Source: a virus (taxonomy: Duplodnaviria > Heunggongvirae > Uroviricota > Caudoviricetes). From it: DNA of 14,009 nucleotides. The stretch is from positions 1 through 14,009 of the IMG/VR virus record IMGVR_UViG_2660237951_000011, one strand, 5' to 3'. The notes below the pieces were generated by a model. The model worked only from the letters and a program-made list of their open reading frames with translations. It searched no databases and was not told the origin of the DNA. This document shows, piece by piece, positions 1 through 12,821 of the stretch (its first letter is position 1; every line of letters begins with the position of its first letter). The position numbers and the translations under genes are program-made.

Positions 1-102
1 GCGCTCAGCTGAGCGCTTCACATCACCATGTTTGCTCTGCACCAGCCTGGCAATTTCACGGCTGGACATTGTCACAACACCCTTAGCGGTTAACTGATTC
101 AT
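1..102 (-). CDS. Rha-family phage regulatory protein / antirepressor, N-terminal fragment (gene continues past window start)
   Basis: Minus-strand ATG at 102..100 preceded by GGAG (7-nt spacing). Translation MNQLTAKGVVTMSSREIARLVQSKHGDVKRSAER matches the N-terminal pattern I recall for Rha/ORF6N-type proteins (T-x-SS-x-EIA..L....H..V.R). Only 34 codons visible. Confidence 0.45.
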   Translation of the reverse strand, partial: MNQLTAKGVVTMSSREIARLVQSKHGDVKRSAER

Positions 103-116
103 GCTATTTCTCCATA

Positions 117-2054
117 TCAGGCGGCTGCACCCGCCTTTTGATTTGCACATAATTCAGGAAGATTTGCTTCTACCAGCGCACGAGCGAACGGCGGCGGTAC
201 TGCGTTACCACAGCGCGCTACCTGCTTGTCTTTGGCGTAACGATTGCCGCGATAGTCCTGATCGATAACGTAGCCGTCAGGGAAGCCCTGCGCCTTATAA
301 AGCTCATGCGGTTGCAGCATGCGCATTCCGATATCGACGATCTGGTACTTAACCCCCTCGATCGTCACCAGCCATTCATCCTCGCTATCACCGCAGTAGG
401 TTTCGAGGAATGTCCGGACCTCGCCAACGTGCTGGCCACCAGCGGTAATCGTCGGCATAGGTGTATCCATGGTCTGACCGTCGCGGCAGGTTCCGCGCAG
501 CTTCACCAGGTGCGACGCAACTACCGCGTGGTGATCAACAGTAGTGACTGAGTGGGCAGGCTCATCCATACCAACACCCGGCCCCGTGTAATTCCCACCA
601 TAGTGCTTCGCCAGGAACGCGCTCACCGTTGCAAACTTATTACCACCAGCAGTGACCGTGCCGAGCGGGTTATTCAGTTGAAGAACACGCGGTTCTTGCC
701 CTGGGCGTTCGCCGTACCCCATCTGGATCAGTGTTGGAGTTACCAGCTGCGACTTACCGCCACCACCTGCAGTAATCGTCGCACTCGGTTCGTCAGCCCT
801 GTGCCCAACACTGGCTCCAAACTGGCGGGCGATGACCGGCGCAACCACGCACGCGCGGGACTGCTTGAGGATTGTATGAGCGGGTTTATCCAGCGGGCGC
901 GGCTTTGCCTGGTACTCACTGCCGCCATTGCCAGCCAGGAACGGTGTCAGGGCGGCCTCAACTACGCCAAGCGCATGCCCATTCCCGCCCGGGCGCGCCG
1001 ACGTACCAGCGGTGACAGTTGGTACCGGCTCGGTCACTGGCTGCCCGGTGGCCCCGGTGCGGAATTTAGTAAGATGCGGTACCGCCAGTGCGTAGCCATG
1101 CTTTTTAGTGATGGTCTGCAATGGCTCTAACAACGATTGCCCGCGGAAACAGTCATAACCTCCTTTCGTCGTGGTGTGGTTACACTTCACGATGAAAGGT
1201 GATGCGCTTTCGATAACAAAGCGCTGGATGCCGCGCGCGATACGTTTGAGCGTATTTTCCGCCAGCGGCTTTTTGCGGTCGAAGATGGACCGGGCCGGGA
1301 TATTCCAGTCAATGCACTCCGCCGCGGTACGCCATGGCGCCAGCTTGCCGCTTTGTACTTCCAGTGATTTTGGATCCCCATGAGTCGCTTCAGGCCAATG
1401 AATCTTGCGGCCGTCACAGCGCGTGACCATGAAGAAACGCTTTCTGATCGTCGGCGCGCCGTAGTCACATGCGCGCAGCTCCCGATAATCAACCTCATAA
1501 CCAAGCCCGGCGATCAGCTGTTGCGCCTGCTGGCCGTGCGGCTCAATGGCAAGGAATTCACAAACCTCAGCCAGCGCAGGGTGATTCGCCGCGATCCCCG
1601 TCGACAGCATGCCGACAAATGCCTCGAATGTTTCGCCAGCACGCTCAGGATCTGGGCGTAATTCTTCATCCAGCAGCGGGCCCCATGTCTTAAACTCTTC
1701 GACGTTCTCCAGCATCATGACGCGGGGACGTACTGCCAGCGCCCAGCGCAGGACAATCCACGCCAGCCCGCGAATCTCTTTCTTAACCGGCTTAGCGCCC
1801 TTCGCCTTGGAAAAGTGGCGGCAGTCAGGGCTAAACCAGGCCAGACCGACAGGTTTACCGCTGGTGGCTGCGCTTGGGTCAACGTCAAACACCGACTCGC
1901 AATAATGCAGCGTGTCAGGGTGATTCGTCTTATGCATCGCAATAGCGTTTTCGTCGTGGTTGATAGCGATATCCACGCTACGCCCGATCGCCAGTTCAAT
2001 GCCGGTACTCGCGCCGCCGCCACCAGCAAAGTTATCAACGATAATTTCACGCAT
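117..2054 (-). CDS. DNA (cytosine-5)-methyltransferase, 645 aa, with greatly expanded variable (target-recognition) region
   Basis: Start moved to internal ATG at 2054 (MREIIVDNF), which overlaps the upstream gene's stop. C5-MTase motifs read in order: I FAGGGGASTG; IV SPDCRHFSKAKG (P-C catalytic Cys); VI MMLENVEEF; VIII ACDYGAPTIRKRFFMV; IX MLQPHELYKAQGFPDGY; X GNAVPPPFARAL. About 370 aa lie between motifs VIII and IX. Confidence 0.85.
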   Translation of the reverse strand: MREIIVDNFAGGGGASTGIELAIGRSVDIAINHDENAIAMHKTNHPDTLHYCESVFDVDPSAATSGKPVGLAWFSPDCRHFSKAKGAKPVKKEIRGLAWIVLRWALAVRPRVMMLENVEEFKTWGPLLDEELRPDPERAGETFEAFVGMLSTGIAANHPALAEVCEFLAIEPHGQQAQQLIAGLGYEVDYRELRACDYGAPTIRKRFFMVTRCDGRKIHWPEATHGDPKSLEVQSGKLAPWRTAAECIDWNIPARSIFDRKKPLAENTLKRIARGIQRFVIESASPFIVKCNHTTTKGGYDCFRGQSLLEPLQTITKKHGYALAVPHLTKFRTGATGQPVTEPVPTVTAGTSARPGGNGHALGVVEAALTPFLAGNGGSEYQAKPRPLDKPAHTILKQSRACVVAPVIARQFGASVGHRADEPSATITAGGGGKSQLVTPTLIQMGYGERPGQEPRVLQLNNPLGTVTAGGNKFATVSAFLAKHYGGNYTGPGVGMDEPAHSVTTVDHHAVVASHLVKLRGTCRDGQTMDTPMPTITAGGQHVGEVRTFLETYCGDSEDEWLVTIEGVKYQIVDIGMRMLQPHELYKAQGFPDGYVIDQDYRGNRYAKDKQVARCGNAVPPPFARALVEANLPELCANQKAGAAA

Positions 2055-3381
2055 TGACGGCCCCCTGCATGCTGTTGAAGAGACCACCAGCGGTCGTGAT
2101 AATTTCACTCGTCGGCATACGTTCGAGCCACAGCTGGTTGATATTGGCTTTCAGCTTGTTCTGCTGCGAAACAGGTAGAGCGTCAGCCCCTTCAATCTGG
2201 TTAAACACCAGTCCAACCTCAAGAGGCCAAACGCGCGATTCGTTTAACGCCTTGTCCTTTGATTCCTGCGTCTCACGGACATGGGCGCGGATCCCCCGAA
2301 TATTTGACCATTTGGCTTTATCCAGGCTTTCCATGGTCGCGATGAATTCACTGTGGTTAATGCCGTATTCTTTCGCAGACTCAACGGCAACCGTGCGTAA
2401 CCGCTCTGACATGTCTTGTTTCACGTCATCGCTATCAAAGGGCAATGTTTCCAGCCATGCATTAACACCCACCAGGATGCTCTCGCTGATCAGCTTTTTC
2501 GCTCTGTCGATCGTCAGCGGTGAAACATTGGTAAATTCAGGGTTTTCCAGAGAGTCGGCAGCCCAGGTATGACCAAACTTTGACTCGCTGAAGGTGTACT
2601 CGTCTTTCTTGCCGAACGCCGCGACAACACAGGCCCAAGCCTCTACACCGCTGGTTTCCAGAATGGCTTTTTGGGTTAATGGCAGTTCTGCCTCTGATTT
2701 CTCCGGCACTACCTCAGCGTCCAGCTCCGGCGCCGCATCAGTTTGCGTTCTTCCCACGGCAAATTGGGCCAGCGACATCGCAGCACGGCCTTTGGCCTCC
2801 AGGTCGGTGCGGTTGATGTAACTGAAACGCTCACCCCGCCATGTTTTGTCGAAGACCACGATAGCGCCAGCAAAAAATGCGCTGGTGGGCTGCTGCTTTT
2901 CGTCTTTCGGCACGAACCATGTAGGAAGATCGAAACCAATTCGGCCACGGATGAATGTGACGTGATCTGCCTCTACCGGCCACCACGTTTCACTCGTCGC
3001 AGACTTAATGAGAAAAACGTACCGACCACCCTTTTCTCGCATGGCCATAGCGTGGTTAATGATGTGGGTCATTCCGGTAACGGCCTGCTTGTCGTGGTAC
3101 TGAGAGCGGCTGTAAGGCGGGTTGCCAAACCCGGCACCACCGAGTTCTGCCAGCCGCTCTGACCAATCCTGCATCAGGGCATTATCTTCAGCCGTGTACC
3201 ATGCTGGGCACTTCGCGTTGCTGTCGTCGGCAAAAAGGTCCAACACCAGAGGGCCGAACATCGCATTGATCCCCCAAAACAACAGATCCGGAGTGCGCCA
3301 TTGATCACCGACCTCTTTCAACTCGTGTGCTGGTTTTGAACGGAGTTCAGCTAGTGCACGGCAGTATTTATTTTCCATCAT
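2047..3381 (-). CDS. Phage Dam-family N6-adenine DNA methyltransferase with ~250-aa C-terminal extension of unknown function
   Basis: N-terminal region DQWRTPDLLFW...LDLFADDSNAKCPAWYT...GFGNPPYSRS carries the NPPY amino-methyltransferase motif in a phage-Dam-like context. Start ATG overlaps the upstream stop (ATGA at 3378-3381). Residues ~200-444 show no motif I recognise. Confidence 0.8.
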   Translation of the reverse strand: MMENKYCRALAELRSKPAHELKEVGDQWRTPDLLFWGINAMFGPLVLDLFADDSNAKCPAWYTAEDNALMQDWSERLAELGGAGFGNPPYSRSQYHDKQAVTGMTHIINHAMAMREKGGRYVFLIKSATSETWWPVEADHVTFIRGRIGFDLPTWFVPKDEKQQPTSAFFAGAIVVFDKTWRGERFSYINRTDLEAKGRAAMSLAQFAVGRTQTDAAPELDAEVVPEKSEAELPLTQKAILETSGVEAWACVVAAFGKKDEYTFSESKFGHTWAADSLENPEFTNVSPLTIDRAKKLISESILVGVNAWLETLPFDSDDVKQDMSERLRTVAVESAKEYGINHSEFIATMESLDKAKWSNIRGIRAHVRETQESKDKALNESRVWPLEVGLVFNQIEGADALPVSQQNKLKANINQLWLERMPTSEIITTAGGLFNSMQGAVNA

Positions 3382-4232
3382 CCTCTGAACCCCTCTGGAA
3401 TCTTGCTATCAACCGGACCGAACTTCATCGGGTCATGTTTCTTTTCACCCCAGCTGTCACGCGGTGGCCGCCCCTTCTTGTCCCAGCGGATCCCGCTTTG
3501 CAGATAACCTTCAAATTTTTTCGGACCGAAGAGCGTTTCAGGACGCATGTACTGGTACTGCACGTCATTGCCGTTCCAGTGCTCATGCTTAAGGTCGATC
3601 ACCAGCTGTAAGTCGCTAACGGTGTAACCTTCACGCAGACGAGCACGGATGTTTTCCAGAGAAGTTTTTGATTTTTGGTATCGTGAGCCACTAACCAGGT
3701 TCAGATGATTCAGAACCAGGATGGCGTTATCGGTGATCATCACTTCAGGGTCTGGTTGCGGCGCAACCGGACAAGAAGGTTTTTTAACTGATGGATCAGT
3801 AGTTGTATTTACTGACGGATCCCCCCCAGATTCTGACGGGTGAAAACCGCCTTTTTCATCGTTTTTTGATGCCTCAGATTTTGACGCGTCGGTTTTTGAG
3901 GCATCAGATTTTGATGCGTCAGAATCTGACAGGTGAGAAAAGGCAGCAGCCTGCAATTTAGCAACATTGAGCTGGTAAACGTTCGATGCATTTCGGTTGC
4001 CTTTACGGCGCTGCTGGCGGGTTAACCAACCATCTTTTTCCAGCTGAGATATGGCTGTACGAACCGTGCTCTCACCAGCACCAATCTGGCGCGCGATGGT
4101 AGCGATGGAAGGCCAGCTAACCCCTTCATCACTGCTGAAGTCTGCCAGACGCGCCATGATGGCAACGCTGGATAGCTTCATGCCAGAAGCGGCACAAGCA
4201 TCCCAAACGTAACCCGTTAATTTAGTGCTCAT
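3378..4232 (-). CDS. Phage replication initiator (lambda O-like): N-terminal winged-HTH, low-complexity SDASK-repeat linker, conserved phage replication C-terminal domain
   Basis: 284-aa ORF with RBS AAGGA 5 nt upstream of the ATG at 4232. N-terminus (SVAIMARLADFSSDEGVSWPSIATIARQIGAGESTVRTAISQLEKDGWL) is HTH-like. Central linker DSDASKSDASKTDASKSEASKND is encoded by tandem 15-bp DNA repeats. C-terminal region resembles phage replication-protein C-terminal domains. The family assignment is from memory, not a search. Confidence 0.65.
   Translation of the reverse strand: MSTKLTGYVWDACAASGMKLSSVAIMARLADFSSDEGVSWPSIATIARQIGAGESTVRTAISQLEKDGWLTRQQRRKGNRNASNVYQLNVAKLQAAAFSHLSDSDASKSDASKTDASKSEASKNDEKGGFHPSESGGDPSVNTTTDPSVKKPSCPVAPQPDPEVMITDNAILVLNHLNLVSGSRYQKSKTSLENIRARLREGYTVSDLQLVIDLKHEHWNGNDVQYQYMRPETLFGPKKFEGYLQSGIRWDKKGRPPRDSWGEKKHDPMKFGPVDSKIPEGFRG
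3864..3938. repeat. Four to five tandem 15-bp repeats (consensus TTTTGAnGCnTCAGA) inside the O-like gene; candidate origin iterons
   Basis: Direct reading gives ttttgatgcctcaga / ttttgacgcgtcggt / ttttgaggcatcaga / ttttgatgcgtcaga / atctgacaggtgaga. Each has a near-palindromic 10-bp core TGAnGCnTCA. Position mirrors lambda ori, which sits in the O linker. Confidence 0.5.
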
Positions 4233-4401
4233 GGTCGTCCTTTAACTCTGTAAACTTGCGCTTGAATTGTTCGAGCGGGCTGAAACATTCGTGGTCATAT
4301 CCATCCCGCAGGTAGATAACTCGTTGAGTCTCTGGCTCCCACCTGATAACCCGAACGGGGATCCCTCTGTGGTCTTTGAACCTTCGGTTAACTTCGCGCA
4401 T
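4222..4401 (-). CDS. Hypothetical small protein (59 aa), below the ORF-track length cutoff
   Basis: Minus-strand ATG at 4401 with AGGAAGG about 10 nt upstream; stop overlaps the O-like start by 11 nt. Translation MREVNRRFKDHRGIPVRVIRWEPETQRVIYLRDGYDHECFSPLEQFKRKFTELKDDHEH is protein-like in composition. Several rare Arg codons and competition with an overlapping 126-aa frame lower confidence. Confidence 0.3.
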   Translation of the reverse strand: MREVNRRFKDHRGIPVRVIRWEPETQRVIYLRDGYDHECFSPLEQFKRKFTELKDDHEH

Positions 4402-4573
4402 AAGCGTTTCGCCTTCCTGTAGTAAACCCCCACAATTGCGACCGCCCGACTGTGGTTACATGGCACCCAGCGGTTTGCTATTCTGCGTTCATACCGAAAC
4501 AACGGAGCGCCCGGTACCGGGATCATCCTGAGTTGCGGCAAACGGTTAAAAGCCGTTAAACTGGTCATGCGGA

Positions 4574-5122
4574 TTACTTCTCCATACAAGATTTGTCTGC
4601 CACGACGCCCGGAGCTGCACACTCGCGGGCGTCACCTTTTTCCGGCGCACAAAACACACGGAAAAGCAGCGTCAAATGTTCCTGCCACTTAGCCATCACC
4701 TGATAGCTGTTCTCTTCAATCTGGGCGCGTTCCTGAGCATCAATAACGCCGTCAGCGGTAGCTTTGCGAACGTATTGCGAATGCCTGCCGATCCACTCCA
4801 CTGACTCCATAAGACGCTGGTTGATGTCACCGTTCTCTATTTCTTCAACGTCAGCCAATGGCACGAAAACACCGTTCGAGTGACGTGCAATAGCGTTCGC
4901 TATGTGGTTTGAACCACCAGCACGTTGAAGCACCATCGCCCAACCGAGCGGGAAGATCTGATCGCCATCGGTACGCAGCCGGTTAAACAGCGCGTTCTCG
5001 GTCACACCCAACCACTCAGCAGCTTCTGAATATCCGCCAGGCAGCTCGGTGATCGTTTTTTTGATTGCGGCCACCAGCCAGGCTGGCTGCTTATCTACTT
5101 TCCATTCAGGTTCTATACCCAC
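4574..5122 (-). CDS. Putative CII-like early regulatory protein, 182 aa, GTG start
   Basis: ORF-track start (GTG at 5206) would overlap cro by 62 nt. An in-frame GTG at 5122 sits 8 nt after a strong AAGGGAGG placed right after the cro stop, so I take 5122 as the start. Sits at the cII position (after cro, before replication genes). Contains an HTH-like stretch (GGYSEAAEWLGVTENALFNRL). Family call is tentative. Confidence 0.5.
   Translation of the reverse strand: MGIEPEWKVDKQPAWLVAAIKKTITELPGGYSEAAEWLGVTENALFNRLRTDGDQIFPLGWAMVLQRAGGSNHIANAIARHSNGVFVPLADVEEIENGDINQRLMESVEWIGRHSQYVRKATADGVIDAQERAQIEENSYQVMAKWQEHLTLLFRVFCAPEKGDARECAAPGVVADKSCMEK
4604..4641 (+). terminator. Intrinsic terminator on + strand, antisense to the 3' end of the CII-like gene (OOP-like arrangement)
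   Basis: 8-bp stem 4604-4611 / 4626-4633 with 7 G:C pairs, 14-nt loop, then ACC and TTTTT (4637-4641). Confidence 0.5.
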
Positions 5123-5144
5123 GGCTAGGTCCTCCCTTCTGTGG

Positions 5145-5360
5145 TTATTTCTGATCGCTTGGCGATGTATTCTTGCCATAACGTTCTGGGTTAAATTCCA
5201 GTTCACCAGCAGTTCGATACGCAGCTTCAGCAGCTCGTCCTTTTGGGATTAAGCGTCCGGGGCGGTTACGCCACTGGTAAACGGCCTCACTGGTGATGCC
5301 AAAAAATTCGGCAACTTTTTCAGTGCTGCCGAAATGTTGTTCAATCTCGTCGGTTGTCAT
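5145..5360 (-). CDS. cro: Cro-like HTH repressor (71 aa)
   Basis: Small basic HTH protein (FGSTEKVAEFFGITSEAVYQWRN) transcribed divergently from the CI repressor gene. AGGAGG lies 4 nt upstream of the ATG. A sigma70-like promoter TTGACC-17-TAATAT is on the minus strand at 5416..5388. Confidence 0.7.
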   Translation of the reverse strand: MTTDEIEQHFGSTEKVAEFFGITSEAVYQWRNRPGRLIPKGRAAEAAYRTAGELEFNPERYGKNTSPSDQK

Positions 5361-5373
5361 GAAGCCTCCTTAG

Positions 5374-5437
5374 CTAAGTTTGGTTAGATATTAATAACCA
5401 ATCTAACTTTGGTCAATAAAAACTAAGATTACTTAGT
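5374..5437. promoter_or_regulatory. OR-like operator/promoter region between cro and cI
   Basis: Three related boxes: CTAAGTTTGGTTAG (5374-5387), CTAACTTTGGTCAA (5403-5416) and perfect palindrome ACTAAGATTACTTAGT (5422-5437). The first two overlap the start site and -35 of the cro promoter. Confidence 0.6.
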
Positions 5438-5459
5438 CTTTTTTAAACTTGGTGCTTTC

Positions 5460-6086
5460 ATGGAAACGGTTGGTCAGCGCATTAAAGCCCTACGTAGGGT
5501 TACAAGAACCTCTCAAAAAGAACTGGGTAAGTTCTGCGGGGTTAGTGACGTAGCGGTGGGTTATTGGGAAAAGGATGTGAATATCCCAAACGGTGAATCG
5601 CTGGTTAAGCTGGCGAAATTCTTTAACACATCAATAGATTACATTCTTTACGGCACTGAATTTGAAGGCACCCTCATAACTAAAATGAGGCGTGTCCCGG
5701 TGATTTCATGGGTTCAAGCTGGGCAGTTCACGGAATGTAAAGCCGCTGATTTGTTCAGTGATGTCGATAAATGGGTTGAAACATCACTTCGCATTGGGGA
5801 TAACTCGTTCGCTTTAGAGGTCAAAGGGGATTCAATGACCAATCCAAATGGCCTCCCAACAATCCCTGAAGGGGCAACCGTTATTGTTGATCCAGATGCC
5901 GAACCCCTTCATGGCAAGATTGTGGTTGCGCGTCTTGATGGCACTAATGAAGCGACTGTTAAAAAACTTGTCATTGATGGCCCACAAAAATTTTTAGTGC
6001 CACTAAATCCTCGCTACCCCAACATCCCGATCAATGGTAACTGCCTCATTATTGGCGTTGTTAAAGGCGTTCAGTACGAACTCTAA
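5460..6086 (+). CDS. cI: CI-type prophage repressor, N-terminal HTH plus C-terminal S24 (LexA-like) autocleaving peptidase domain
   Basis: N-terminal HTH (TSQKELGKFCGVSDVAVGYWE). Ala-Gly cleavage site in VQAGQF. Ser nucleophile in GDSM and the Lys of the dyad in ATVKKL. Divergent from cro across an operator region. Confidence 0.9.
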   Translation: METVGQRIKALRRVTRTSQKELGKFCGVSDVAVGYWEKDVNIPNGESLVKLAKFFNTSIDYILYGTEFEGTLITKMRRVPVISWVQAGQFTECKAADLFSDVDKWVETSLRIGDNSFALEVKGDSMTNPNGLPTIPEGATVIVDPDAEPLHGKIVVARLDGTNEATVKKLVIDGPQKFLVPLNPRYPNIPINGNCLIIGVVKGVQYEL

Positions 6087-6104
6087 TCCCTTCCCACTCT
6101 TCCT

Positions 6105-6169
6105 CTAAGCATCAAGCTAAGTTTAGTTTGATGTTTTCACTTGACCAGAAAACTAAGTTAAGTTAGATT
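6105..6169 (+). promoter_or_regulatory. OL/pL-like promoter and operators downstream of cI
   Basis: TTGACC (6141-6146), 17-bp spacer, TAGATT (6164-6169). The spacer and -10 overlap the near-palindrome ACTAAGTTAAGTTAGAT. Further CTAAG boxes at 6105-6109 and 6117-6130 belong to the same half-site family as the OR boxes. Confidence 0.5.
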
Positions 6170-6528
6170 TTTTTCTGTCGGCACCAAACCACCGCGCCTG
6201 ATGTGGTTAAAAGCAGGCCAAAGCAATAAGACGTGTTCCCTGTTCTGGCTGCTCACTTTCCCCTTGAGGGTGACAGCCAGCTTTTTAAGGGCACAACAGG
6301 CGAGAGCATTGCTGATTATCGGACTGCGTGAGACGCGACGCGGTAAAGCAGGTAAACAGTGCTCTCACCGTTGTGGTAATGCGGCTCTGCGCACGTGACG
6401 AGGCCAACAAGTTTTTATTTCAACTTTTGAAATGAATACGTTTCTTGTGGTGTAGCGTCGCCGGTTCTGGCCGGTCCGGCAGGTGGAGGCACCACCGCCA
6501 CAACAACATCATTGCTGTGTGTAGTCTT

Positions 6529-6557
6529 TGCCCATCACATCGGTGGGCACCTTTTTT
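6529..6557 (+). terminator. Intrinsic terminator-like hairpin inside the leader upstream of the first accessory gene
   Basis: 8-bp stem TGCCCATC / GGTGGGCA (one G:U pair), 5-nt loop, then CC and TTTTTT (6552-6557). Confidence 0.45.
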
Positions 6558-6713
6558 ACACAAGAGACAAGGGCATCACCGGGCGACGGGCTCATTCCCC
6601 AATCCACCCGGGCAAGAGGATAGCGATTGCAGTCGCCGACAAATGCAGGTGCCCTTCTCTGTTGTGTATGGAGAAAGTTCGGCGGTGGCAGCCGCCATAA
6701 CGAGGGTAAAACC

Positions 6714-7085
6714 ATGAGTAATGACCGCATGACCGTAGTGCCCGACTTTTTGGGCGAGCTGGATGCCGGTGTGTTCATGAACAAAATCGCGGCAGCACTT
6801 AACACCACCGCGCTTGGCGTTCTGAACAACGGCAACAAAGGCAAAGTAGTCCTCACCTTTGATTTTGAGCGTATGGGTAATTCCGTTGAAGAGAAGCGCG
6901 TCAAGATCAAGCACAAGCTGAACTACAGCACCCCAACTCCGCGCGGTAAAGCCTCCGAAGAGGACACAACCGAAACCCCTATGTGGGTTAACAAAGGCGG
7001 GAAGCTAACCATCCTCCAGGAGGATCAGGGGCAACTGTTCGGGATCACCGGCGCGGTGGACGGAAAGCTTAAAGCGGCTCAGTGA
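6714..7085 (+). CDS. Hypothetical protein (123 aa), first gene of the accessory operon; YfdP-like by position
   Basis: ATG at 6714 with GAGGG 7 nt upstream. The ORF-track start at 6627 has no RBS. Typical codon usage. YfdP assignment is by gene order only, not sequence recall. Confidence 0.6.
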   Translation: MSNDRMTVVPDFLGELDAGVFMNKIAAALNTTALGVLNNGNKGKVVLTFDFERMGNSVEEKRVKIKHKLNYSTPTPRGKASEEDTTETPMWVNKGGKLTILQEDQGQLFGITGAVDGKLKAAQ

Positions 7086-7141
7086 TCCGCAACAACAAAC
7101 TCACTGATACCACTTTGATCATCAGTTAATAAGGAATTTTT

Positions 7142-7969
7142 ATGTCTCAGTTAGACAGCGGCACCTTCAAGCAGGTCAAAGACCTGGTCCTTTCCGGTTA
7201 TCACCTGAATGATATTCATGGCCTGGCTTGCCCGACCGCATTACTGCCAGAGGGTACTGGCGTTGAAAGCCTTGAGCGCTTTTCTCTGGAACGTTTCCGC
7301 TTTCGTGGCGCAATGACCACAACCAGTATTGACGACTTCGCACGTTATTCTAAAGGTTATGCCAGCGCCAGCGAGCCAGCTCGTTGCTTCATTGACGCTG
7401 ACAACATGACCGCCCGTTCAGTGTTCAACATCGGCACCCTGGATAACCCCGGTCACGCCGATAACGTTGCTTCAATCACTCTGAAGAAAACCGCCCCGTT
7501 TCGCGCGCTACTACAGATCGATGGTCAGCGTCTGAAACAAAAGCAAATCGCTGAATGGCTGGAAGACTGGAGTGATTACCTGCTGGCGTTTGACGCTGAT
7601 GGTAAGACGATGGAGATTTCTCAGGCGGCTCAGGCCGTGCGTCGTATCACTATCCAACAAGCAACCCAGCAGGATCATGAAACTGGTGATTTCGCTGGTA
7701 AAAAATCACTCATGCAAAGCGTCGAAGCAAGCAGCAAAGACGTAATGCCGGTAGCGTTCGAATTCAAATGTGTGCCGTATGAAGGTCTGGGCGAACGCCG
7801 CTTTAGCTTGCGTAACAGCCTGCTGACCAGCGATGAACCCTGCTTTGTTCTGCGCATCGTCCAACTTGAAGCCCAGGAAGAAGCAATCGCCAACGAATTC
7901 CGCGATTTACTGATCAGCAAGTTCGACGGTGAATCAGTGGAAACTTTCATCGGTAACTTTAAAGCCTAA
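7142..7969 (+). CDS. Hypothetical protein (275 aa); YfdQ/DUF2303-like by position
   Basis: AGGA 7 nt upstream of ATG. No recognisable catalytic motif. Lies immediately upstream of the YfdR-like gene, as in the yfdP-yfdQ-yfdR order I recall for the CPS-53/KplE1 prophage of E. coli K-12. Confidence 0.6.
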   Translation: MSQLDSGTFKQVKDLVLSGYHLNDIHGLACPTALLPEGTGVESLERFSLERFRFRGAMTTTSIDDFARYSKGYASASEPARCFIDADNMTARSVFNIGTLDNPGHADNVASITLKKTAPFRALLQIDGQRLKQKQIAEWLEDWSDYLLAFDADGKTMEISQAAQAVRRITIQQATQQDHETGDFAGKKSLMQSVEASSKDVMPVAFEFKCVPYEGLGERRFSLRNSLLTSDEPCFVLRIVQLEAQEEAIANEFRDLLISKFDGESVETFIGNFKA

Positions 7970-7981
7970 TTGCTCTGCATT

Positions 7982-8008
7982 AAATCCCCGGCGCCGCGGG
8001 GATTTATT
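7982..8008 (+). terminator. Hairpin / possible terminator or attenuator after the YfdQ-like gene
   Basis: Inverted repeat AAATCCCCG-gcgccg-CGGGGATTT (9-bp stem), followed by ATT. Located 13 nt after the stop codon. Confidence 0.4.
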
Positions 8009-8097
8009 GAAGCGTAATTCCATTAATTATCGCCATCCGGCGAGGGATTCGTGCAACCAAAATCTGCGCGGTGCAGCGCGCCAATATGGAGAAAACC

Positions 8098-8637
8098 ATG
8101 AGCTACATTCAGACATTATCCGGCAAACACTTTAATTACCTCGATATCCAACAGGACGATATCGTCATCGAGGATATTGCTACTGCGCTGTCTCATATCT
8201 GCCGTTTTGCTGGGCATCTTCCTGAGTTTTACAGCGTCGGCCAGCATAGCGTTTTAACCAGCCATCTCGTTCCGCAGGAGTTTGCCTTAGAAGCACTGCT
8301 TCATGATGCCGCCGAAGCCTACCTGCAAGATATTCCCTCACCGCTTAAGCGCCTGTTACCGGATTACCAGGTGATCGAAGCTCGCGTAGACGCTGCTATT
8401 CGCCAGAAATTTGGCCTACCGACGGAGCAACACCCAACAGTGAAATATGCCGATCTGGTGATGCTCGCCAGCGAACGCCGCGATTTTGAGATTGACGAAG
8501 GTTCCGTGTGGCCATGCCTCGATGGCGTTGTCCCGACGGACCTATTCATCATCAATCCAGTTCGTCCAGGCCAGTCATACGGCATGTTCATAAATCGCTT
8601 TAATGAGTTGATGGAGCAGCGTCAATGCGCCGCATGA
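8098..8637 (+). CDS. yfdR: HD-domain phosphohydrolase, YfdR-like 5'-deoxynucleotidase
   Basis: HD motif visible: H-x(n)-HD in LSHICRFAGH...YSVGQHSVLTS...EALLHDAAEAYLQDIP. Strong end-to-end resemblance to my recollection of E. coli YfdR. Start at 8098 (GGAG 6 nt upstream), not the track start at 8071. Confidence 0.7.
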   Translation: MSYIQTLSGKHFNYLDIQQDDIVIEDIATALSHICRFAGHLPEFYSVGQHSVLTSHLVPQEFALEALLHDAAEAYLQDIPSPLKRLLPDYQVIEARVDAAIRQKFGLPTEQHPTVKYADLVMLASERRDFEIDEGSVWPCLDGVVPTDLFIINPVRPGQSYGMFINRFNELMEQRQCAA

Positions 8638-8801
8638 AGGTAAAAGAACTCGTGGCGGAGGCGTTTGCCTCCGTGGCTGAATTGCCACCAAAGCATGCAT
8701 CGCTTATGCGCGAAGTCGCTACCAGGCTTGAAGCTACGTTCGCAGCATTAACCGAATCATTGGCGCAACTGGAACAGGAACGTAAAGGTAAAACGCAATG
8801 A
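8634..8801 (+). CDS. Hypothetical small protein (55 aa), below ORF-track cutoff
   Basis: ATG overlaps the yfdR-like stop (ATGA at 8634-8637) and its own stop overlaps the next start (ATGA at 8798-8801). Translation MKVKELVAEAFASVAELPPKHASLMREVATRLEATFAALTESLAQLEQERKGKTQ is helical-looking. Confidence 0.45.
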   Translation: MKVKELVAEAFASVAELPPKHASLMREVATRLEATFAALTESLAQLEQERKGKTQ

Positions 8802-9052
8802 CCGTATTTGAATATCTCCAGGGCCACCCGAACGCCACCAGCGGTGAAATCGCAAGGGCGATGGGTAAAAAGACGCCAGCCGTAGCCAGCGCACTATCTC
8901 AGCTTTATGCAACAGGGAGAATTGTTAAGTCTGGCGCACGCGGTGGGATACCGACATACCGCGTCAATGATCTGCCGTTTGGATGCAGCAATAACTTAAC
9001 GCTGATATTTAACCAGCTTCTGCGAAACGTCCGCAAAGGAGCAGCCCAATGA
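8798..9052 (+). CDS. Hypothetical small protein, possible winged-helix DNA-binding fold (84 aa)
   Basis: Translationally coupled on both sides. The stretch SGEIARAMGKKTPAVASALSQLYATGRIV looks HTH-like. Confidence 0.55.
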   Translation: MTVFEYLQGHPNATSGEIARAMGKKTPAVASALSQLYATGRIVKSGARGGIPTYRVNDLPFGCSNNLTLIFNQLLRNVRKGAAQ

Positions 9053-9366
9053 GCAAATTTACGGCATTACCAGTAGAACGCGACCAATACGGCTACTGGA
9101 CTCACCCCGTCTATGAGCAATTTTGCGATGGTCGTGAATTTATCTCACCTGATGAGTTCAACGCCTGGCTGGATAAAAACGGCCTCGAATGGACGGTAGT
9201 TTACCGGGATGAAGAAGACATCGATCCTGAAGTTGATGGTTACGATATTTCAGCCTGGCAGCCAGAATCGCCAGCCGGTGAAGGTTGGTTTGTCGGTTCA
9301 ATTCACAACACCGAAGATGGCGCGGTATGCATCTGGTTACGTAACGTTGAAGGCGGTGCAGCATGA
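9049..9366 (+). CDS. Hypothetical protein (105 aa)
   Basis: ATGA overlaps at both ends. Acidic, Trp-rich. No family recognised. Confidence 0.6.
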   Translation: MSKFTALPVERDQYGYWTHPVYEQFCDGREFISPDEFNAWLDKNGLEWTVVYRDEEDIDPEVDGYDISAWQPESPAGEGWFVGSIHNTEDGAVCIWLRNVEGGAA

Positions 9367-10121
9367 CAGTCCATACACTGAAGCAATGCCGCCCGGACCA
9401 AGAAGAAACCGAGTATTTCTGGAAGTTGTTTCATGCGGCACAACGGAATGACGCTCGCTGGCACGGTAGTGAAATCAGCATTATCGCCGATGAACTATCC
9501 CGGACGGATTTAGATCGTAATCAAAAACTGTTTCTTCTCCGTGCCTGGCAAGTGCTGGTAGACGACAAAGGTGGATTCGGGCGCTTGATGGGTGCCTTTG
9601 ATACTTACGTCTACAACATGCAGGACCCTGATGATGACTGCGTAGCCTGGAAGCCTGAACTGGCTAAGCTGCTACAGGATGGCAATCTGTTTGATGTTGT
9701 GCTGACGGCATATCAGGAGGCCTGCCATGAGGGGATCGTTAATTGGGAGGCAGCGGTATCTCTTTCTGAGGAAAACGTAGAACTGAAGCGCAAACTCTAC
9801 GCAGCAGAGAATCAAATAGCAGAACTGGAGGCGCGGACGTTCAATCCTGCAATTCTAGATGTGATAGCAGAGCGCCAGCGGCAGAAAGCCGTTGAGGGCT
9901 GGACGTCTGAGCATGACGACAAATACGGAAAATCGCAGTTGTTGTGGGCATCCTCATGCTACGTCCTGAACACCATCCAGCCGTTTAACCGCATTCCGAT
10001 GGACTGGCCGTGGGCACCCGAATGGTGGAAGCCGACAGGCCCGCGCCGTGACCTGGTGAAAGCTGGCGCGCTTATTCTGGCTGAAATTGAACGCATAGAC
10101 CGCCAGGAGGCAGCACAATGA
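9363..10121 (+). CDS. Hypothetical protein with central coiled-coil (252 aa); possibly Ea22-related
   Basis: ATGA coupling at both ends. Coiled-coil segment EENVELKRKLYAAENQIAELEAR. Trp-rich C-terminus. Confidence 0.6.
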   Translation: MTVHTLKQCRPDQEETEYFWKLFHAAQRNDARWHGSEISIIADELSRTDLDRNQKLFLLRAWQVLVDDKGGFGRLMGAFDTYVYNMQDPDDDCVAWKPELAKLLQDGNLFDVVLTAYQEACHEGIVNWEAAVSLSEENVELKRKLYAAENQIAELEARTFNPAILDVIAERQRQKAVEGWTSEHDDKYGKSQLLWASSCYVLNTIQPFNRIPMDWPWAPEWWKPTGPRRDLVKAGALILAEIERIDRQEAAQ

Positions 10122-10771
10122 GCAACATCAACAAACAGGCGCTGCGTGAAACGGCGGATGCAGCAAACAAAGCCTCGTGGGGCCGTTGGGAATCATATCA
10201 TCCACACAAAGGCGCGCGGGGCCACGAGGTCAAGGTAGGGGTAAAAGCAATCGCCCAGCACTGCCTCAAGGTTGATGCAGAATTCATCGCCGCATCCAAC
10301 CCCGCCACTGTGCTGGCGCTGCTGGATGAGCTGGAAACTAAAGACAAGCGTAATGCGGAGCTGGAAGACCTTCTTGAAGCTGAAATTAAGTCATGGATGC
10401 AACGGTACGATAGTGCAAATAACCGAAGAGAAGCCGCAGAGAAGCGCAACGCAAAATTACAAAGCGAGAATGCATACATCCGCAACCGGTTCAAAGAACT
10501 GGACCTATTAATCGGGAAAAACATTCTGGTCATGCAGGCTGCGATTATCGAATGGCAGGCAACTGGCGACGCTAAGAGCGGACTGGCATGGATTTATAAC
10601 ACACTGTTTGGCCCAGGCGAATTGCCGGACGAATCTGAGAAAGATGCTCAGGCCTACTTTGACCGCAAATATGCACCGATTGACGAAGAGCTTATGGCGC
10701 TTCACAAGTGGTTTTGGGAACAAAGTGAAGCCGAACGTGCCGCCGCTGGCATTGGCGTGAAGGGGGAGTGA
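10118..10771 (+). CDS. Ead/Ea22-like protein (217 aa)
   Basis: N-terminus MSNINKQALRE... and the ATVLALLDELE segment match my recollection of lambda Ea22 (MSEINSQALRE..., ...VLELLDERE). Central coiled-coil. AGGAGG RBS. Assignment from memory, not a search. Confidence 0.6.
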   Translation: MSNINKQALRETADAANKASWGRWESYHPHKGARGHEVKVGVKAIAQHCLKVDAEFIAASNPATVLALLDELETKDKRNAELEDLLEAEIKSWMQRYDSANNRREAAEKRNAKLQSENAYIRNRFKELDLLIGKNILVMQAAIIEWQATGDAKSGLAWIYNTLFGPGELPDESEKDAQAYFDRKYAPIDEELMALHKWFWEQSEAERAAAGIGVKGE

Positions 10772-10772
10772 G

Positions 10773-11045
10773 ATGAAAAAATACCTCAGTAATTTAGCGA
10801 GCATGTTGCAGGGTATTGCAGGTGTAATTTCAGACGGCGAACGAGTGCAAACTGAGTGTCCTCCGCATTTAAAATCTGCGCTACTTGAGGCGTCTCATGC
10901 GCTGGATGGTCAATCAGTCAGGGTTAATTACCCACCAAATGGGAAACCGGAAATCGTAAATGCTCGCGGCAAGCATCGGCAGTTAACTTTCCGGGAACGG
11001 ATTGCTATTCGCCTTCTCGGCGGCAGAACGGAGATTAGGCCATGA
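10773..11045 (+). CDS. Hypothetical protein (90 aa)
   Basis: GGGGGAG RBS 4 nt upstream. Stop overlaps the next start (ATGA at 11042-11045). Confidence 0.55.
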   Translation: MKKYLSNLASMLQGIAGVISDGERVQTECPPHLKSALLEASHALDGQSVRVNYPPNGKPEIVNARGKHRQLTFRERIAIRLLGGRTEIRP

Positions 11046-11578
11046 CAACTAACCACCCGGCGCACGGTCCTGTATCAATAGATCGCCTGCACCAGATACG
11101 CGAAGTACTCAGCAAAGCAGCAGCACAAAGCGACGGCGGTAATCTCGGCTACGCAATGGCTGATGCTGTCAAGGTGATTGATAAGGCTATTGCTGCGTTT
11201 AATGCGGAGCTTTATGTTCCTACCGTTCAGTGCTGGTCATGCAGAGAGGTTATTGAAGTTTCCGCAGTAGGTGACTGTGATGGTTATTGCCCGAAATGCG
11301 ACTCGCCAATTGATCTCGATGAAGAGCCATACGATGCCGCCATACTTCAGGCTGGCAACTCTCCGGTGATTCCGGATGGTTGGAAACTGGTACCGATTGT
11401 GCCGACGGAGAAGATGGTTATCGAAGGCTTCGAGTCGGAGCCAGACGAATTCTTCAGTAAATCTGAAGTGTGGGAGGCGTATCAGAAAATGAGTGGCTGC
11501 GAACAAGCGGCGCATCGGGCCAAGTTATGCTGGGCAGCGATGATCTCAGCAGCACCACAACAGGAGGTGAAGCTGTGA
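11042..11578 (+). CDS. Hypothetical zinc-ribbon protein (178 aa)
   Basis: Two CxxC pairs, CWSCREV...CPKCDSP, spaced like a zinc ribbon. Translationally coupled on both sides. Confidence 0.6.
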   Translation: MTTNHPAHGPVSIDRLHQIREVLSKAAAQSDGGNLGYAMADAVKVIDKAIAAFNAELYVPTVQCWSCREVIEVSAVGDCDGYCPKCDSPIDLDEEPYDAAILQAGNSPVIPDGWKLVPIVPTEKMVIEGFESEPDEFFSKSEVWEAYQKMSGCEQAAHRAKLCWAAMISAAPQQEVKL

Positions 11579-11814
11579 CTAAATCAGAATTCCTCCAGAA
11601 GGTAGCGGTGCTGGCCGGTGAATGCCATAAGTTGGCCTGTGAGCTGGACATAGGCGATGAACGAATAGAGATGTTCGAGATTTATGAAGTGCTTCGCCGA
11701 ATCCAGCGGAGTGGTGCAGCCGGTGAAATGCTGGCTGCAACAAACCCTTTACTATCCCCTGGAATACCTGAGGACACTGAATGGGTAAATTTCCATAAAG
11801 AGGATCATGCCTGA
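11575..11814 (+). CDS. Hypothetical protein (79 aa), GTG start
   Basis: GTG at 11575 overlaps the upstream stop (GTGA) and is preceded by AGGAGG at 7-nt spacing. The ORF-track start at 11470 lies inside the upstream gene and has no RBS. Confidence 0.5.
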   Translation: MTKSEFLQKVAVLAGECHKLACELDIGDERIEMFEIYEVLRRIQRSGAAGEMLAATNPLLSPGIPEDTEWVNFHKEDHA

Positions 11815-11990
11815 TGCCTAAGACAATCATCATAACCTTAGAAATTGATGTTCCGGAACACGCTACCGATAGCGACATATCAGATTGGGTAGACGTCGAG
11901 TACGGGCAGTGTGGTGGACAAAAATTAGATAACCCCTGCCGTGGCGATGCCACCGAAGTAATAAACCATTCATGGAAATTTGAGAGCTAA
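11814..11990 (+). CDS. Hypothetical small protein (58 aa), below ORF-track cutoff
   Basis: ATG overlaps the upstream stop (TGATG). Translation MPKTIIITLEIDVPEHATDSDISDWVDVEYGQCGGQKLDNPCRGDATEVINHSWKFES. Fills an otherwise unexplained 180-bp gap in a tightly packed operon. Confidence 0.45.
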   Translation: MPKTIIITLEIDVPEHATDSDISDWVDVEYGQCGGQKLDNPCRGDATEVINHSWKFES

Positions 11991-11992
11991 AG

Positions 11993-12565
11993 ATGAACGA
12001 CTTAATGATTGACCTCGAATCAATGGGGAAAAAGCCAAACGCGCCGATCGTCTCAGTTGGTGCTGTCTTTTTTAACCCTCAAACAGGTGAACTTGGCCAA
12101 GAATTCTATACAGCCGTCTCGCTTGAAAGCTCAATGGATCAAGGCGCGGTACCGGATGGAGATACGATTCTTTGGTGGCTAAAACAAAGCCCTGAAGCGC
12201 GCTCAGCTATCTGCGTTGATGATGCGATGCCTATCACTGATGCACTGTCGGAACTTAGCCATTTCATTCACCGGCATGCATATAATCTCAAATACATGAA
12301 GGTCTGGGGTAACGGGGCCACCTTTGACAATGTGATTTTGCGCGGAGCTTACGAACGCGCCGGACGCATTTGCCCGTGGGAATTTTGGAACGATCATGAT
12401 GTACGAACGATTGTTACCCTCGGTCGCAGTGTTGGTTTCGATCCGAAGCGTGACATGCCTTTCATTGGCGATGTTCACAACGCCCTGGCTGATGCGCGCC
12501 ATCAGGCAAAATATGTGTCAGCAATTTGGCAGAAAATTATCCCTGCCACCAGCACCAACGAGTAA
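11993..12565 (+). CDS. DnaQ-like (DEDDh) 3'-5' exonuclease
   Basis: N-terminal MIDLESMG (Asp-x-Glu) and C-terminal HNALADARH (His/Asp) match the acidic-residue pattern of DEDDh exonucleases. Lies directly before xis-int. Confidence 0.7.
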   Translation: MNDLMIDLESMGKKPNAPIVSVGAVFFNPQTGELGQEFYTAVSLESSMDQGAVPDGDTILWWLKQSPEARSAICVDDAMPITDALSELSHFIHRHAYNLKYMKVWGNGATFDNVILRGAYERAGRICPWEFWNDHDVRTIVTLGRSVGFDPKRDMPFIGDVHNALADARHQAKYVSAIWQKIIPATSTNE

Positions 12566-12609
12566 ACCACACAGCCCGGGTGCAGCCGGGCTTTATGGAG
12601 AAGGAAACC

Positions 12610-12819
12610 ATGGCAAAGCTAATGAAAGCGAGTCTCTGGAGTAAACGCGAATTTACCAAAGACTCCATTCCTGACAACCGTACAATAAAACGTTGGGTCG
12701 AAAACGGATTACTCATGGGAAGGATTGTAGATGGTTCAGTTTTTGTCTATGAAACCGAAAAGTGGGGAGTTGACTCAATTGTTAATCAGGCGGTACGTCA
12801 GTTAATAATTGAGGGTTGA
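12610..12819 (+). CDS. xis: Excisionase-like recombination directionality factor (69 aa)
   Basis: Start moved to ATG at 12610 (GGAGAAGGAAA RBS). Pattern W-x(n)-P-x(n)-RWVENGLL...G...V.E parallels lambda Xis. Stop lies 2 nt before the integrase ATG. Confidence 0.6.
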   Translation: MAKLMKASLWSKREFTKDSIPDNRTIKRWVENGLLMGRIVDGSVFVYETEKWGVDSIVNQAVRQLIIEG

Positions 12820-12821
12820 CC

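Follow-up and report, generated by a model that had tools for sequence, protein, structure and literature searches.

In phage lambda, the replication origin is a textbook case of dyad-symmetric sites lying inside the initiator gene, O. Among the Shiga toxin (Stx) phages, 933W and 'P27' carry six iterons of the lambda type, and the iteron number varies, lengthening the linker of the initiator (Kozlowska et al. 2020, PMC7466680). Stx-phage iteron mutations that left the O protein unchanged abolished plasmid establishment (PMC7466680). The Francisella phage KIRK encodes a Phg_2220_C replication protein with an internal KDNNK x3 repeat, and a putative four-iteron origin has been placed in the same region (PMC7924643). 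Here, we analysed a 14,009-nucleotide stretch of a Caudoviricetes virus (IMG/VR record IMGVR_UViG_2660237951_000011, positions 1 to 14,009; hereafter the window), in which a minus-strand replication initiator gene contains a tandem repeat array. Judged from its sequence and that of its relatives, the segment 3750-3941 is most likely the replication origin of a lambdoid prophage, embedded in that stretch of the initiator gene which encodes a linker. The arrangement itself is that of lambda; its probable occurrence in this initiator family is what is new, and it would not surprise a specialist. No paper mapping or testing the origin of this HTH_36 initiator family was found in the searchable literature, a search that leaves much subscription literature outside.

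Tandem Repeats Finder, run on the whole window, called the array at 3864-3923 with a period of 15 bp (4.0 copies, 77% matches) and also with a period of 30 bp (3859-3920, 2.1 copies, 87% matches), the period of 30 being the better tandem match of the two registers. Every other tandem array in the window scored 39 or less, leaving the array at 3864-3923 far ahead. The 15-bp direct repeats described in an earlier note on this DNA are borne out by these calls, and the degenerate fifth unit that it mentioned matches the region 3859-3869 (3 mismatches). The array lies inside the minus-strand open reading frame (ORF) 3378-4232 and encodes the peptide SDSDASKSDASKTDASKSEASKNDE, in longer context ...FSHLSDSDASKSDASKTDASKSEASKNDEKGG....

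The earlier note had also described a near-palindromic 10-bp core. The four cores were found at the places quoted (3867-3876, 3882-3891, 3897-3906 and 3912-3921), but the conserved core proved to be TCARAWTCTGA, the centre of TGAYGCNTCA being the least conserved part. Both registers use the same TGA/TCA half-sites: the one first described encloses a variable 4-nt spacer, whereas TCARAWTCTGA encloses a conserved 5-nt spacer. Single sites in the two registers are TGATGCGTCA and GTCAGAATCTGAC, respectively. With up to one mismatch, TGAYGCNTCA gave 16 matches in the window against 7.5 expected (4 of 200 shuffles were as high); with up to two mismatches, TCARAWTCTGA gave 26 against 12.4 expected, a count that none of 200 shuffles reached. 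All window matches to TCARAWTCTGA with 0-1 mismatches were confined to 3826-3929. Five sites in a 15-bp register and one distal site occupy codons 101-136, directly after the winged-helix domain. The parts of the proposed origin are as follows:

3750-3941, no strand assigned: proposed origin, with suppressed synonymous variation; codes for the disordered linker, codons 98-161.
3919-3929, no strand assigned: site 1, perfect 11-bp palindrome TCAGAATCTGA within GTCAGAATCTGAC; 0 mismatches on both strands.
3904-3914, no strand assigned: site 2, TCAAAATCTGA on the minus strand; 0 mismatches; 15 bp from site 1.
3889-3899, no strand assigned: site 3, weaker copy TCAAAAACCGA on the minus strand; 2 mismatches; 15-bp register.
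3874-3884, no strand assigned: site 4, TCAAAATCTGA on the minus strand; 0 mismatches; 15-bp register.
3859-3869, no strand assigned: site 5, degenerate copy TCAAAAAACGA on the minus strand; 3 mismatches; 15-bp register.
3826-3836, no strand assigned: distal site, TCAGAATCTGG on the minus strand; 1 mismatch; 48 bp from site 4.
3780-3822, no strand assigned: AT-rich tract, presumed unwinding region; guanine-plus-cytosine (GC) fraction 0.325 for 3780-3819, the lowest of the gene region.
3750-3772, no strand assigned: 23-bp palindrome, GTCTGGTTGCG-G-CGCAACCGGAC, bordering the C-domain module.

We then compared the gene with its close relatives, comprising 80 IMG/VR and five E. coli loci whose N-terminal domains (N-domains) are 87-100% identical to that of the window. 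Across 83 distinct genes, mean synonymous codon diversity was 0.38 in the N-domain, 0.10 in codons 98-151 and 0.42 in the C-terminal domain (C-domain), and codons 98-151 differed from the folded domains with Mann-Whitney p = 5e-13 and 3e-14. The dip spans codon 98 to about codon 161, corresponding to window 3941-3750 or roughly 190 bp. The array, which the earlier note had taken as the origin, is included, but the element is larger, at about 3750-3941. It falls on the disordered linker, the part of the protein expected to be under the least constraint. The lowest diversity is seen in the flanks at codons 98-105 and 130-156, and slippage cannot account for it there because these flanks are non-repeated.

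The array stands directly after the N-domain in all collected loci, and its repeat number, a point raised in the earlier note, varies from 3 to 7 units. Over 239 units, the 15-nt consensus is NCN-TCA-AAA-TCT-GAY. A occupies the four-fold third position of Ser-TCA in 234 of the 239 units and the third position of Lys-AAA in 228; changes at the latter position lead mostly to T (Asn) and not to the synonymous G. Free to vary are the third base of GAY and the four-fold site of the unit's first codon, which encodes A, P or T with C always in second position. This position-wise pattern identifies the conserved block as TCAAAATCTGA, an imperfect palindrome of the form TCA-5-TGA. In the first unit, (G)TCAGAWTCTGA(C), the palindrome is perfect, and codons 99-104 show no synonymous variation; the central base of site 1 is only A or T in the relatives even though the amino acid changes (D/E/V), and the synonymous GAC never occurs. 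In the 83 genes, all sites with 0-1 mismatches to TCARAWTCTGA (412/412) lie in gene nt 285-520, with none elsewhere in the gene. These patterns show selection on the DNA itself, beyond coding needs. More generally, a dip of this kind offers a simple means of locating origins that lie within genes.

The repeats could instead be a slippage-prone, low-complexity protein linker with no role as DNA, the origin lying elsewhere. Slippage readily yields tandem codon repeats, the region is predicted to be disordered, and close relatives differ in copy number over the whole range of 3-7 units. However, in a neutral linker synonymous variation should be no lower than in the folded domains, whereas about four times less was seen, and the non-repeated flanks at codons 98-105 and 130-161 share this deficit. 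Within a single unit, constrained synonymous sites alternate with free ones, amino-acid changes are tolerated where the DNA motif stays, and the motif is kept under different peptides in phiP27 and in the divergent locus L090. The window also holds no other comparable repeat. We therefore consider a linker without a DNA role very improbable.

Synonymous constraint could also arise from an overlapping gene in another frame, and alternative ORFs do cover the array, on the plus strand at 3803-3961 (52 amino acids, TTG start) and on the minus strand at 3809-3991 (60 amino acids). Repeats without stop codons, however, are open by construction, and the variable nucleotides sit on second codon positions of the open frames. 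A frame survey of the 83 relatives revealed no alternative frame open across the zone, except in one sequence in one antisense frame. The overlapping-gene explanation was rejected on this survey, and we give it next to no credence.

The sites are inherited together with the N-domain. The same array follows this domain in genes with three C-domain types, namely Phg_2220_C, a lambda-O type and another type. Loci L003, L005 and L066-L085 combine the window-type N-module with a lambda-O C-domain (BLASTP 9e-25 for L003). Locus L004 shares the window's C-domain, with 89% nucleotide identity ending at window 3782, has an unrelated N-terminal region, and carries four 22-bp repeats of other sequence at the place of the window array.

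Relatives with moderately divergent N-domains keep the DNA motif while the peptide changes. L17 of phiP27, with 64% N-domain identity, has five TCAGAWTCTG sites encoding the peptide DPSDSEPSKSEPSESE, and its gene is followed by DnaC-like and DnaB-like genes. L090 (68% N-domain identity) has GTTCAGATTCTGAAC x4.5 at a 15-bp period, encoding SERSHSEHSDSERPDSERPE (peptide SERPD). After these sites come the same GATCC-headed 13-mers as in the window and then GTCGGAGAATTCTGGCGAATCCCCCGAC, a near-copy of lambda's GTCAGAGAATTCTGGCGAATCCTCTGAC, with a lambda-O-like C-domain and a Phage_lambda_P gene further on. In L090, L003 and phiP27 L17, the genomic context marks the protein as an initiator and gives the cassette of N-domain plus repeats exactly the role that N-domain and iterons have in lambda O. 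With greater divergence of the N-domain, other dyad repeats are found. In L091 (58% identity), a 30-bp unit in 5.6 copies contains a pair of dyad sites spaced by 15 bp, one of them GGTCCGRAATCCGGACC and the other of the TCAG type, and in the phi24B 'O' (41% identity) a 24-bp unit contains the dyad GGCAG-3-CTGCC. Of 46 remote homologues (26-72% identity), nearly all carry distinct peptide repeats immediately behind the N-domain, at periods of ~5, 8, 11, 15 or 22 residues; the high-GC ones then carry an Asn/Lys-rich stretch, that is, AT-rich DNA. These homologues came from an exhaustive representative search, as a word-indexed search with the N-domain gave almost only truncated fragments of up to 174 amino acids and yielded no full-length distant relative.

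Two side observations concern these relatives. L090 derives from the NCBI assembly GCA_035796135.1, and its recombination joint (locus 1940-1995) falls between the AT-rich tract and the palindrome. Many E. coli genomes encode 138-amino-acid fusion proteins (P0053-P0068) that join the first ~80 N-domain residues to a RusA resolvase domain (PF05866). They are apparently deletion scars in defective prophages that have lost the stretch from the origin up to rusA.

The comparison of modules also bears on whether the dyad sites are bound by some other regulator, such as the cII-like/YmfL protein, the DUF4222 protein or a host factor, for example to attenuate downstream transcription. Dyad-symmetric sites of 11-13 bp are typical of operators, and DUF4222 and YmfL-like genes always stand beside the initiator in the E. 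coli relatives. In L004, however, the sites change with the N-domain while the DUF4222 and YmfL-like genes stay. Furthermore, phiP27 and L090 keep the sites with other upstream genes (Ant/regulator and YdaS/YdaT), and no copy with 0-1 mismatches occurs in any promoter region of the window. Binding by another regulator is accordingly judged highly improbable.

Beyond the five sites, 81 of the 83 relatives have the distal site with an unchanged offset of 48 bp, and codons 133-135 show no synonymous variation. A distal copy is also present in phiP27 and L090, the distal sites of phiP27 being 32-33 bp apart. The AT-rich stretch that the earlier note had placed beside the array is real but moderate, with a GC fraction of 0.325 over 3780-3819 against ~0.45-0.6 around it. 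Synonymous variation is essentially zero in the codons of this tract (137-151), and its GATCCGTCAGTAAAT is retained in L091 despite the different iterons there. The tract contains two direct 13-mers, GATCCRTCAGTWA on the minus strand, at 3809-3821 and 3785-3797, each headed by a Dam site (GATC at 3818 and 3794). The palindrome at 3750-3772 is an inverted repeat with 11-nt arms that are 91% complementary and 1 nt apart. It is also present in L004, whose N-module differs, and is degraded in some relatives, such as L003.

The GATC-headed 13-mers, which L091 keeps as well, flank the AT-rich core, and the phage's own Dam-type methyltransferase gene (2047-3381) lies immediately downstream of the initiator. 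At the place of the 13-mers, remote homologues hold the peptide (D/E)P(S/P)(L/I/V) x2-3. The pair may act in unwinding in a methylation-sensitive way, or it may reflect a short protein motif. GATC is not enriched over expectation in the window, and only the two sites in the AT-rich tract are noteworthy. No DnaA box lies beside the origin zone; the nearest match to TTWTNCACA with up to one mismatch is at 3652-3660, about 90 bp outside 3750-3941, and the DnaA-box count across the window equals expectation.

In the allele of the window, repeats 2 (TGATGCCTCA) and 4 (TGAGGCATCA) are exact reverse complements of each other and surround the palindrome GACGCGTC, giving a dyad of ~40-45 bp within 3864-3909 centred at 3886/3887. 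This large dyad is specific to this allele and was not counted as a functional element because it is missing in the relatives. Single-stranded DNA of 3750-3945 folds much better than shuffled sequences (z = -4.97); since this folding stems from the dyad sites, it was not counted as independent evidence.

The edges of the segment coincide with module breakpoints, so that 3750-3941 might be boundary sequence that promotes homologous recombination between lambdoid replication modules rather than an origin. L004 matches the window only up to 3782 and L003 from 3750 upward, C-domain swaps occur just after the QPD codons, and the 23-bp palindrome is common to modules with different N-domains. A recombination linker, however, needs no dyad array, no AT-rich tract and no co-variation with the N-domain, and lambda has the same breakpoint placement together with a proven origin. 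The two roles are compatible, as both coexist in lambda, and a boundary that is not an origin seems improbable to us.

The initiator gene and its domains, together with the promoter candidate of its operon, are as follows:

3378-4232, minus strand: replication initiator gene, 284 amino acids; ORF, Pfam and PHROG matches, and the lambda-O position of the early-right operon.
3927-4232, minus strand: N-terminal winged-helix domain, amino acids 1-102, presumed reader of the sites; AlphaFold2 and Foldseek.
3474-3749, minus strand: C-terminal helical domain, amino acids 162-253, Phg_2220_C, presumed recruiter of host replication proteins; Pfam, predicted local distance difference test (pLDDT) score 82-96.
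5388-5416, minus strand: pR-like promoter candidate between cI and cro; TTGACC-17-TAATAT, 9/12 matches, a consensus match only.

Pfam matches of the initiator are HTH_36 at amino acids 23-70 (E 1.9e-9) and Phg_2220_C at amino acids 173-245 (E 4.7e-23). Its PHROG matches are annotated as 'replication initiation protein', 'replication initiation O-like' and 'primosomal protein', and 'DnaD-like helicase loader' families match as well (E 5e-7 and 2e-6). AlphaFold2 predicted amino acids 1-102 with pLDDT >90 and a topology of four successive helices and a two-strand wing, amino acids 103-161 as disordered (pLDDT 44-57), and amino acids 162-253 as a confident helical domain. The best PDB folds for the N-domain in Foldseek were dimeric winged helix-turn-helix regulators (MarR/ArsR/TFE), as weak matches with E ~0.01 and none <0.001.

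On the minus strand, the gene order is cro-like (5145-5360), cII/YmfL-like (4574-5206), DUF4222 (4222-4401), initiator and methyltransferases, the latter being the Dam-type gene at 2047-3381 and then a C5 methyltransferase gene at 117-2108. A LexA-type cI repressor gene lies divergently on the plus strand (5460-6086). The region is thus the early-right operon of a lambdoid E. coli prophage. A consensus scan found no terminator-like minus-strand site between the pR-like match (5416-5388) and the initiator gene. No P-, DnaB- or DnaC-like gene follows the initiator in the window, nor is there one in the early-right region of phage LLS from repressor to lysis genes. The initiator gene is 98.7% identical to prophage genes of several E. 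coli genomes and 96.6-97.4% identical at the nucleotide level in the isolated phages Flotzy, LLS and Eeyore. As LLS and Flotzy carry the same gene, the initiator/origin module appears to work in live phages.

Several features of the neighbourhood were observed in addition. The Dam-family methyltransferase has 444 amino acids, with a Pfam Dam domain only at amino acids 19-199, and the C5 cytosine methyltransferase has 663 amino acids with three separate matched stretches; both contain large extra regions and are placed where lambda has gene P. The DUF4222 gene shares 11 nt with the start of the initiator gene and stands beside it in 5/5 E. coli relatives (L001-L005), including L004; its product may be a translationally coupled partner of a loader-less replication module. 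Two overlapping minus-strand ORFs lie here in different frames, 4222-4401 (59 amino acids, DUF4222, E 2.7e-18) and 4242-4622 (126 amino acids, phrog_1170, E 1.6e-16). RefSeq relatives annotate the DUF4222 ORF and phage LLS the longer one; perhaps one family rests on wrongly called ORFs, or perhaps both frames are in use. The leftward operon (plus strand, 6627-7969 and 8071-8637) contains yfdP/yfdQ-like genes, phrog_204 and phrog_210, as well as a deoxyribonucleoside 5'-monophosphate phosphatase gene (phrog_318) and a DnaQ-like exonuclease gene (11993-12565). This leftward set resembles the CPS-53/e14 gene set and is present in phage LLS too.

The proposal of the earlier note that this is the prophage origin is supported by every computational test run, namely constraint, co-inheritance, motif persistence, tripartite order and chimeras. 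From these data we infer how such an origin may work. Dimers of the N-terminal winged-helix domain would bind the TCARAWTCTGA dyads, five at 3859-3929 and one distal at 3826-3836. The multimeric nucleoprotein complex formed in this way would destabilise the adjoining AT-rich tract at 3780-3822, and the C-terminal Phg_2220_C domain would bring in host helicase machinery, a role proposed because the initiator gene is followed by no helicase or loader gene of the phage. Transcripts starting at the pR-like promoter would cross the origin, as they do in lambda.

Several points weigh against this reading. For this initiator family, the searchable literature yielded no experimental evidence of binding or origin activity, and the AT-rich tract is only moderate (67.5% AT over 40 bp). 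The 15-bp spacing puts sites of 11-13 bp almost back to back and about 150 degrees apart, and full occupancy is not assured because neighbouring sites are near-contiguous and on nearly opposite faces of the helix; successive dimers would either take alternating sides of the helix or fill just those sites that lie 30 bp from each other. Slippage homogenisation could make the array look more conserved than it is but would leave the non-repeated flanks unaffected, and the codon-wise test treats codons as independent while the sequences are related. The helicase-recruitment steps are conjecture, as no loader gene is present.

A more specific version of the origin, in which the initiator works without a phage loader and with an unusual geometry, is possible but rather unlikely as a whole. 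Palindromic sites of 11-15 bp at a strict 15 bp (~1.4 turns) would give a zig-zag or helical filament, not a wrapped O-some, or every second site (30 bp, ~3 turns) would be occupied. Half-sites can pair in two registers, as TCA-5-TGA or TGA-4-TCA. Phg_2220_C would directly recruit host DnaB/DnaC or a primosome, and the GATC 13-mers, together with the neighbouring phage Dam gene, would add methylation-dependent timing.

The initiator family is common in enterobacterial prophages. Relatives of the N-domain were found in 120 phage records, including Shigella phages SfII/SfIV, phiP27, and Klebsiella and Citrobacter phages, and more distantly in phi24B-type Stx phages; IMG/VR holds >599 matching stretches, and E. 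coli Nissle 1917 carries a relative. With a site consensus, an extent, an AT-rich tract and a palindrome, the proposed origin (3750-3941) offers a concrete, testable map for a widespread prophage replication module. Such a map would be of use for interpreting defence systems that sense phage origins; infection, for example, leads to an enrichment of Lamassu at the iterons of the lambda O gene (PMC12663957). It would also help to predict the replication compatibility of co-resident prophages and assist the design of replication-defective prophages in probiotic or production strains. The lambda design, with an origin in the initiator linker and an exchangeable cassette of N-domain plus sites, would extend to a family that Pfam keeps apart from lambda O.

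Plasmid iteron origins, such as those of R6K, pSC101, F and P1, have initiator-binding repeats beside an AT-rich unwinding region and winged-helix initiators. Their iterons are usually direct repeats of ~17-22 bp near two helical turns, outside the rep ORF and with DnaA boxes. The window does not match this type, as its sites are palindromic, lie within the gene at a 15-bp spacing and have no DnaA box nearby. Gram-positive phage 'replisome organizer' genes (SPP1 gene 38/oriL, lactococcal P335-type) contain in-gene direct repeats bound by their own product. These systems belong to other protein families and hosts, and the DnaD-like PHROG matches of the window protein hint at a related architecture. 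KIRK differs from the window in host, repeat and N-terminal region, and its origin is likewise a sequence-based proposal. The O proteins of 933W and 'P27' are lambda O with 2-3 residue differences and a 13-residue insert, have lambda iterons and are unrelated in sequence to the window initiator. We considered the 'P27' O of Kozlowska et al. as phiP27 L17 and rejected this identity, since that O is of lambda type, two residues from lambda; because its O is not L17, the 'P27' study gives no direct experimental support here.

The earlier note had described the repeats as encoding the SDASK linker of an O-like protein. The linker-coding role, the position of O and the architecture hold, but the protein has no Phage_rep_O match or detectable similarity to lambda O. 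PF04492 (Phage_rep_O) did not match the window protein at E <=0.01, whereas lambda O matches it at 5.7e-36; BLASTP between lambda O and the window initiator gave E 0.62, and hhalign a probability of 0.2% with a shallow 8-sequence profile. Lambda O was absent from the top 50 of a Foldseek search against viral models, where many HTH + Phg_2220_C proteins were listed. The window protein lacks the P-interacting C-domain of the lambda-O type and has Phg_2220_C in its place. Membership in the lambda O family (PF04492) was rejected on the HTH_36 match, the Phg_2220_C C-domain and the lack of a P-type loader gene downstream. According to a published HHpred analysis, lambda O itself has HTH_36 and Phg_2220_C domains (PMC5509034), and this assignment makes remote homology plausible; the link of lambda O to HTH_36 was not reproduced here with the shallow profile.

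The origins themselves were compared part by part, with lambda represented by locus L086:

Lambda 535-619: sites, four iterons just after the Pfam N-domain (amino acids 22-115); window equivalent 3929 to 3826.
Lambda 620-659: AT-rich tract, GC fraction 0.225; window equivalent 3822 to 3780, GC fraction 0.325.
Lambda 663-690: palindrome, 28 bp; window equivalent 23 bp, 3772 to 3750.

The lambda sites are 18-19 bp long at a spacing of 20-24 bp, whereas those of the window are 11-13 bp at a strict 15 bp, so the difference in phasing pointed out in the earlier note is real. The lambda palindrome differs in sequence from that of the window, the lambda AT-rich tract is the stronger of the two (0.225 against 0.325), and lambda has gene P after O where the window has the Dam-type methyltransferase. 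The order of sites, AT-rich tract and palindrome in the gene direction (promoter-distal) is nevertheless the same. The lambda N-domain ends at amino acid 115 with iterons from codon 117, and that of the window ends at amino acid 102 with sites from codon 101. In both, dyad sites lie inside the initiator ORF, code for a flexible linker, occupy the cro-cII-O operon position and are inherited with the N-domain in mosaics. Finally, natural chimeras unite a window-type N-module with a lambda-O C-domain, lambda's palindrome and the P gene.

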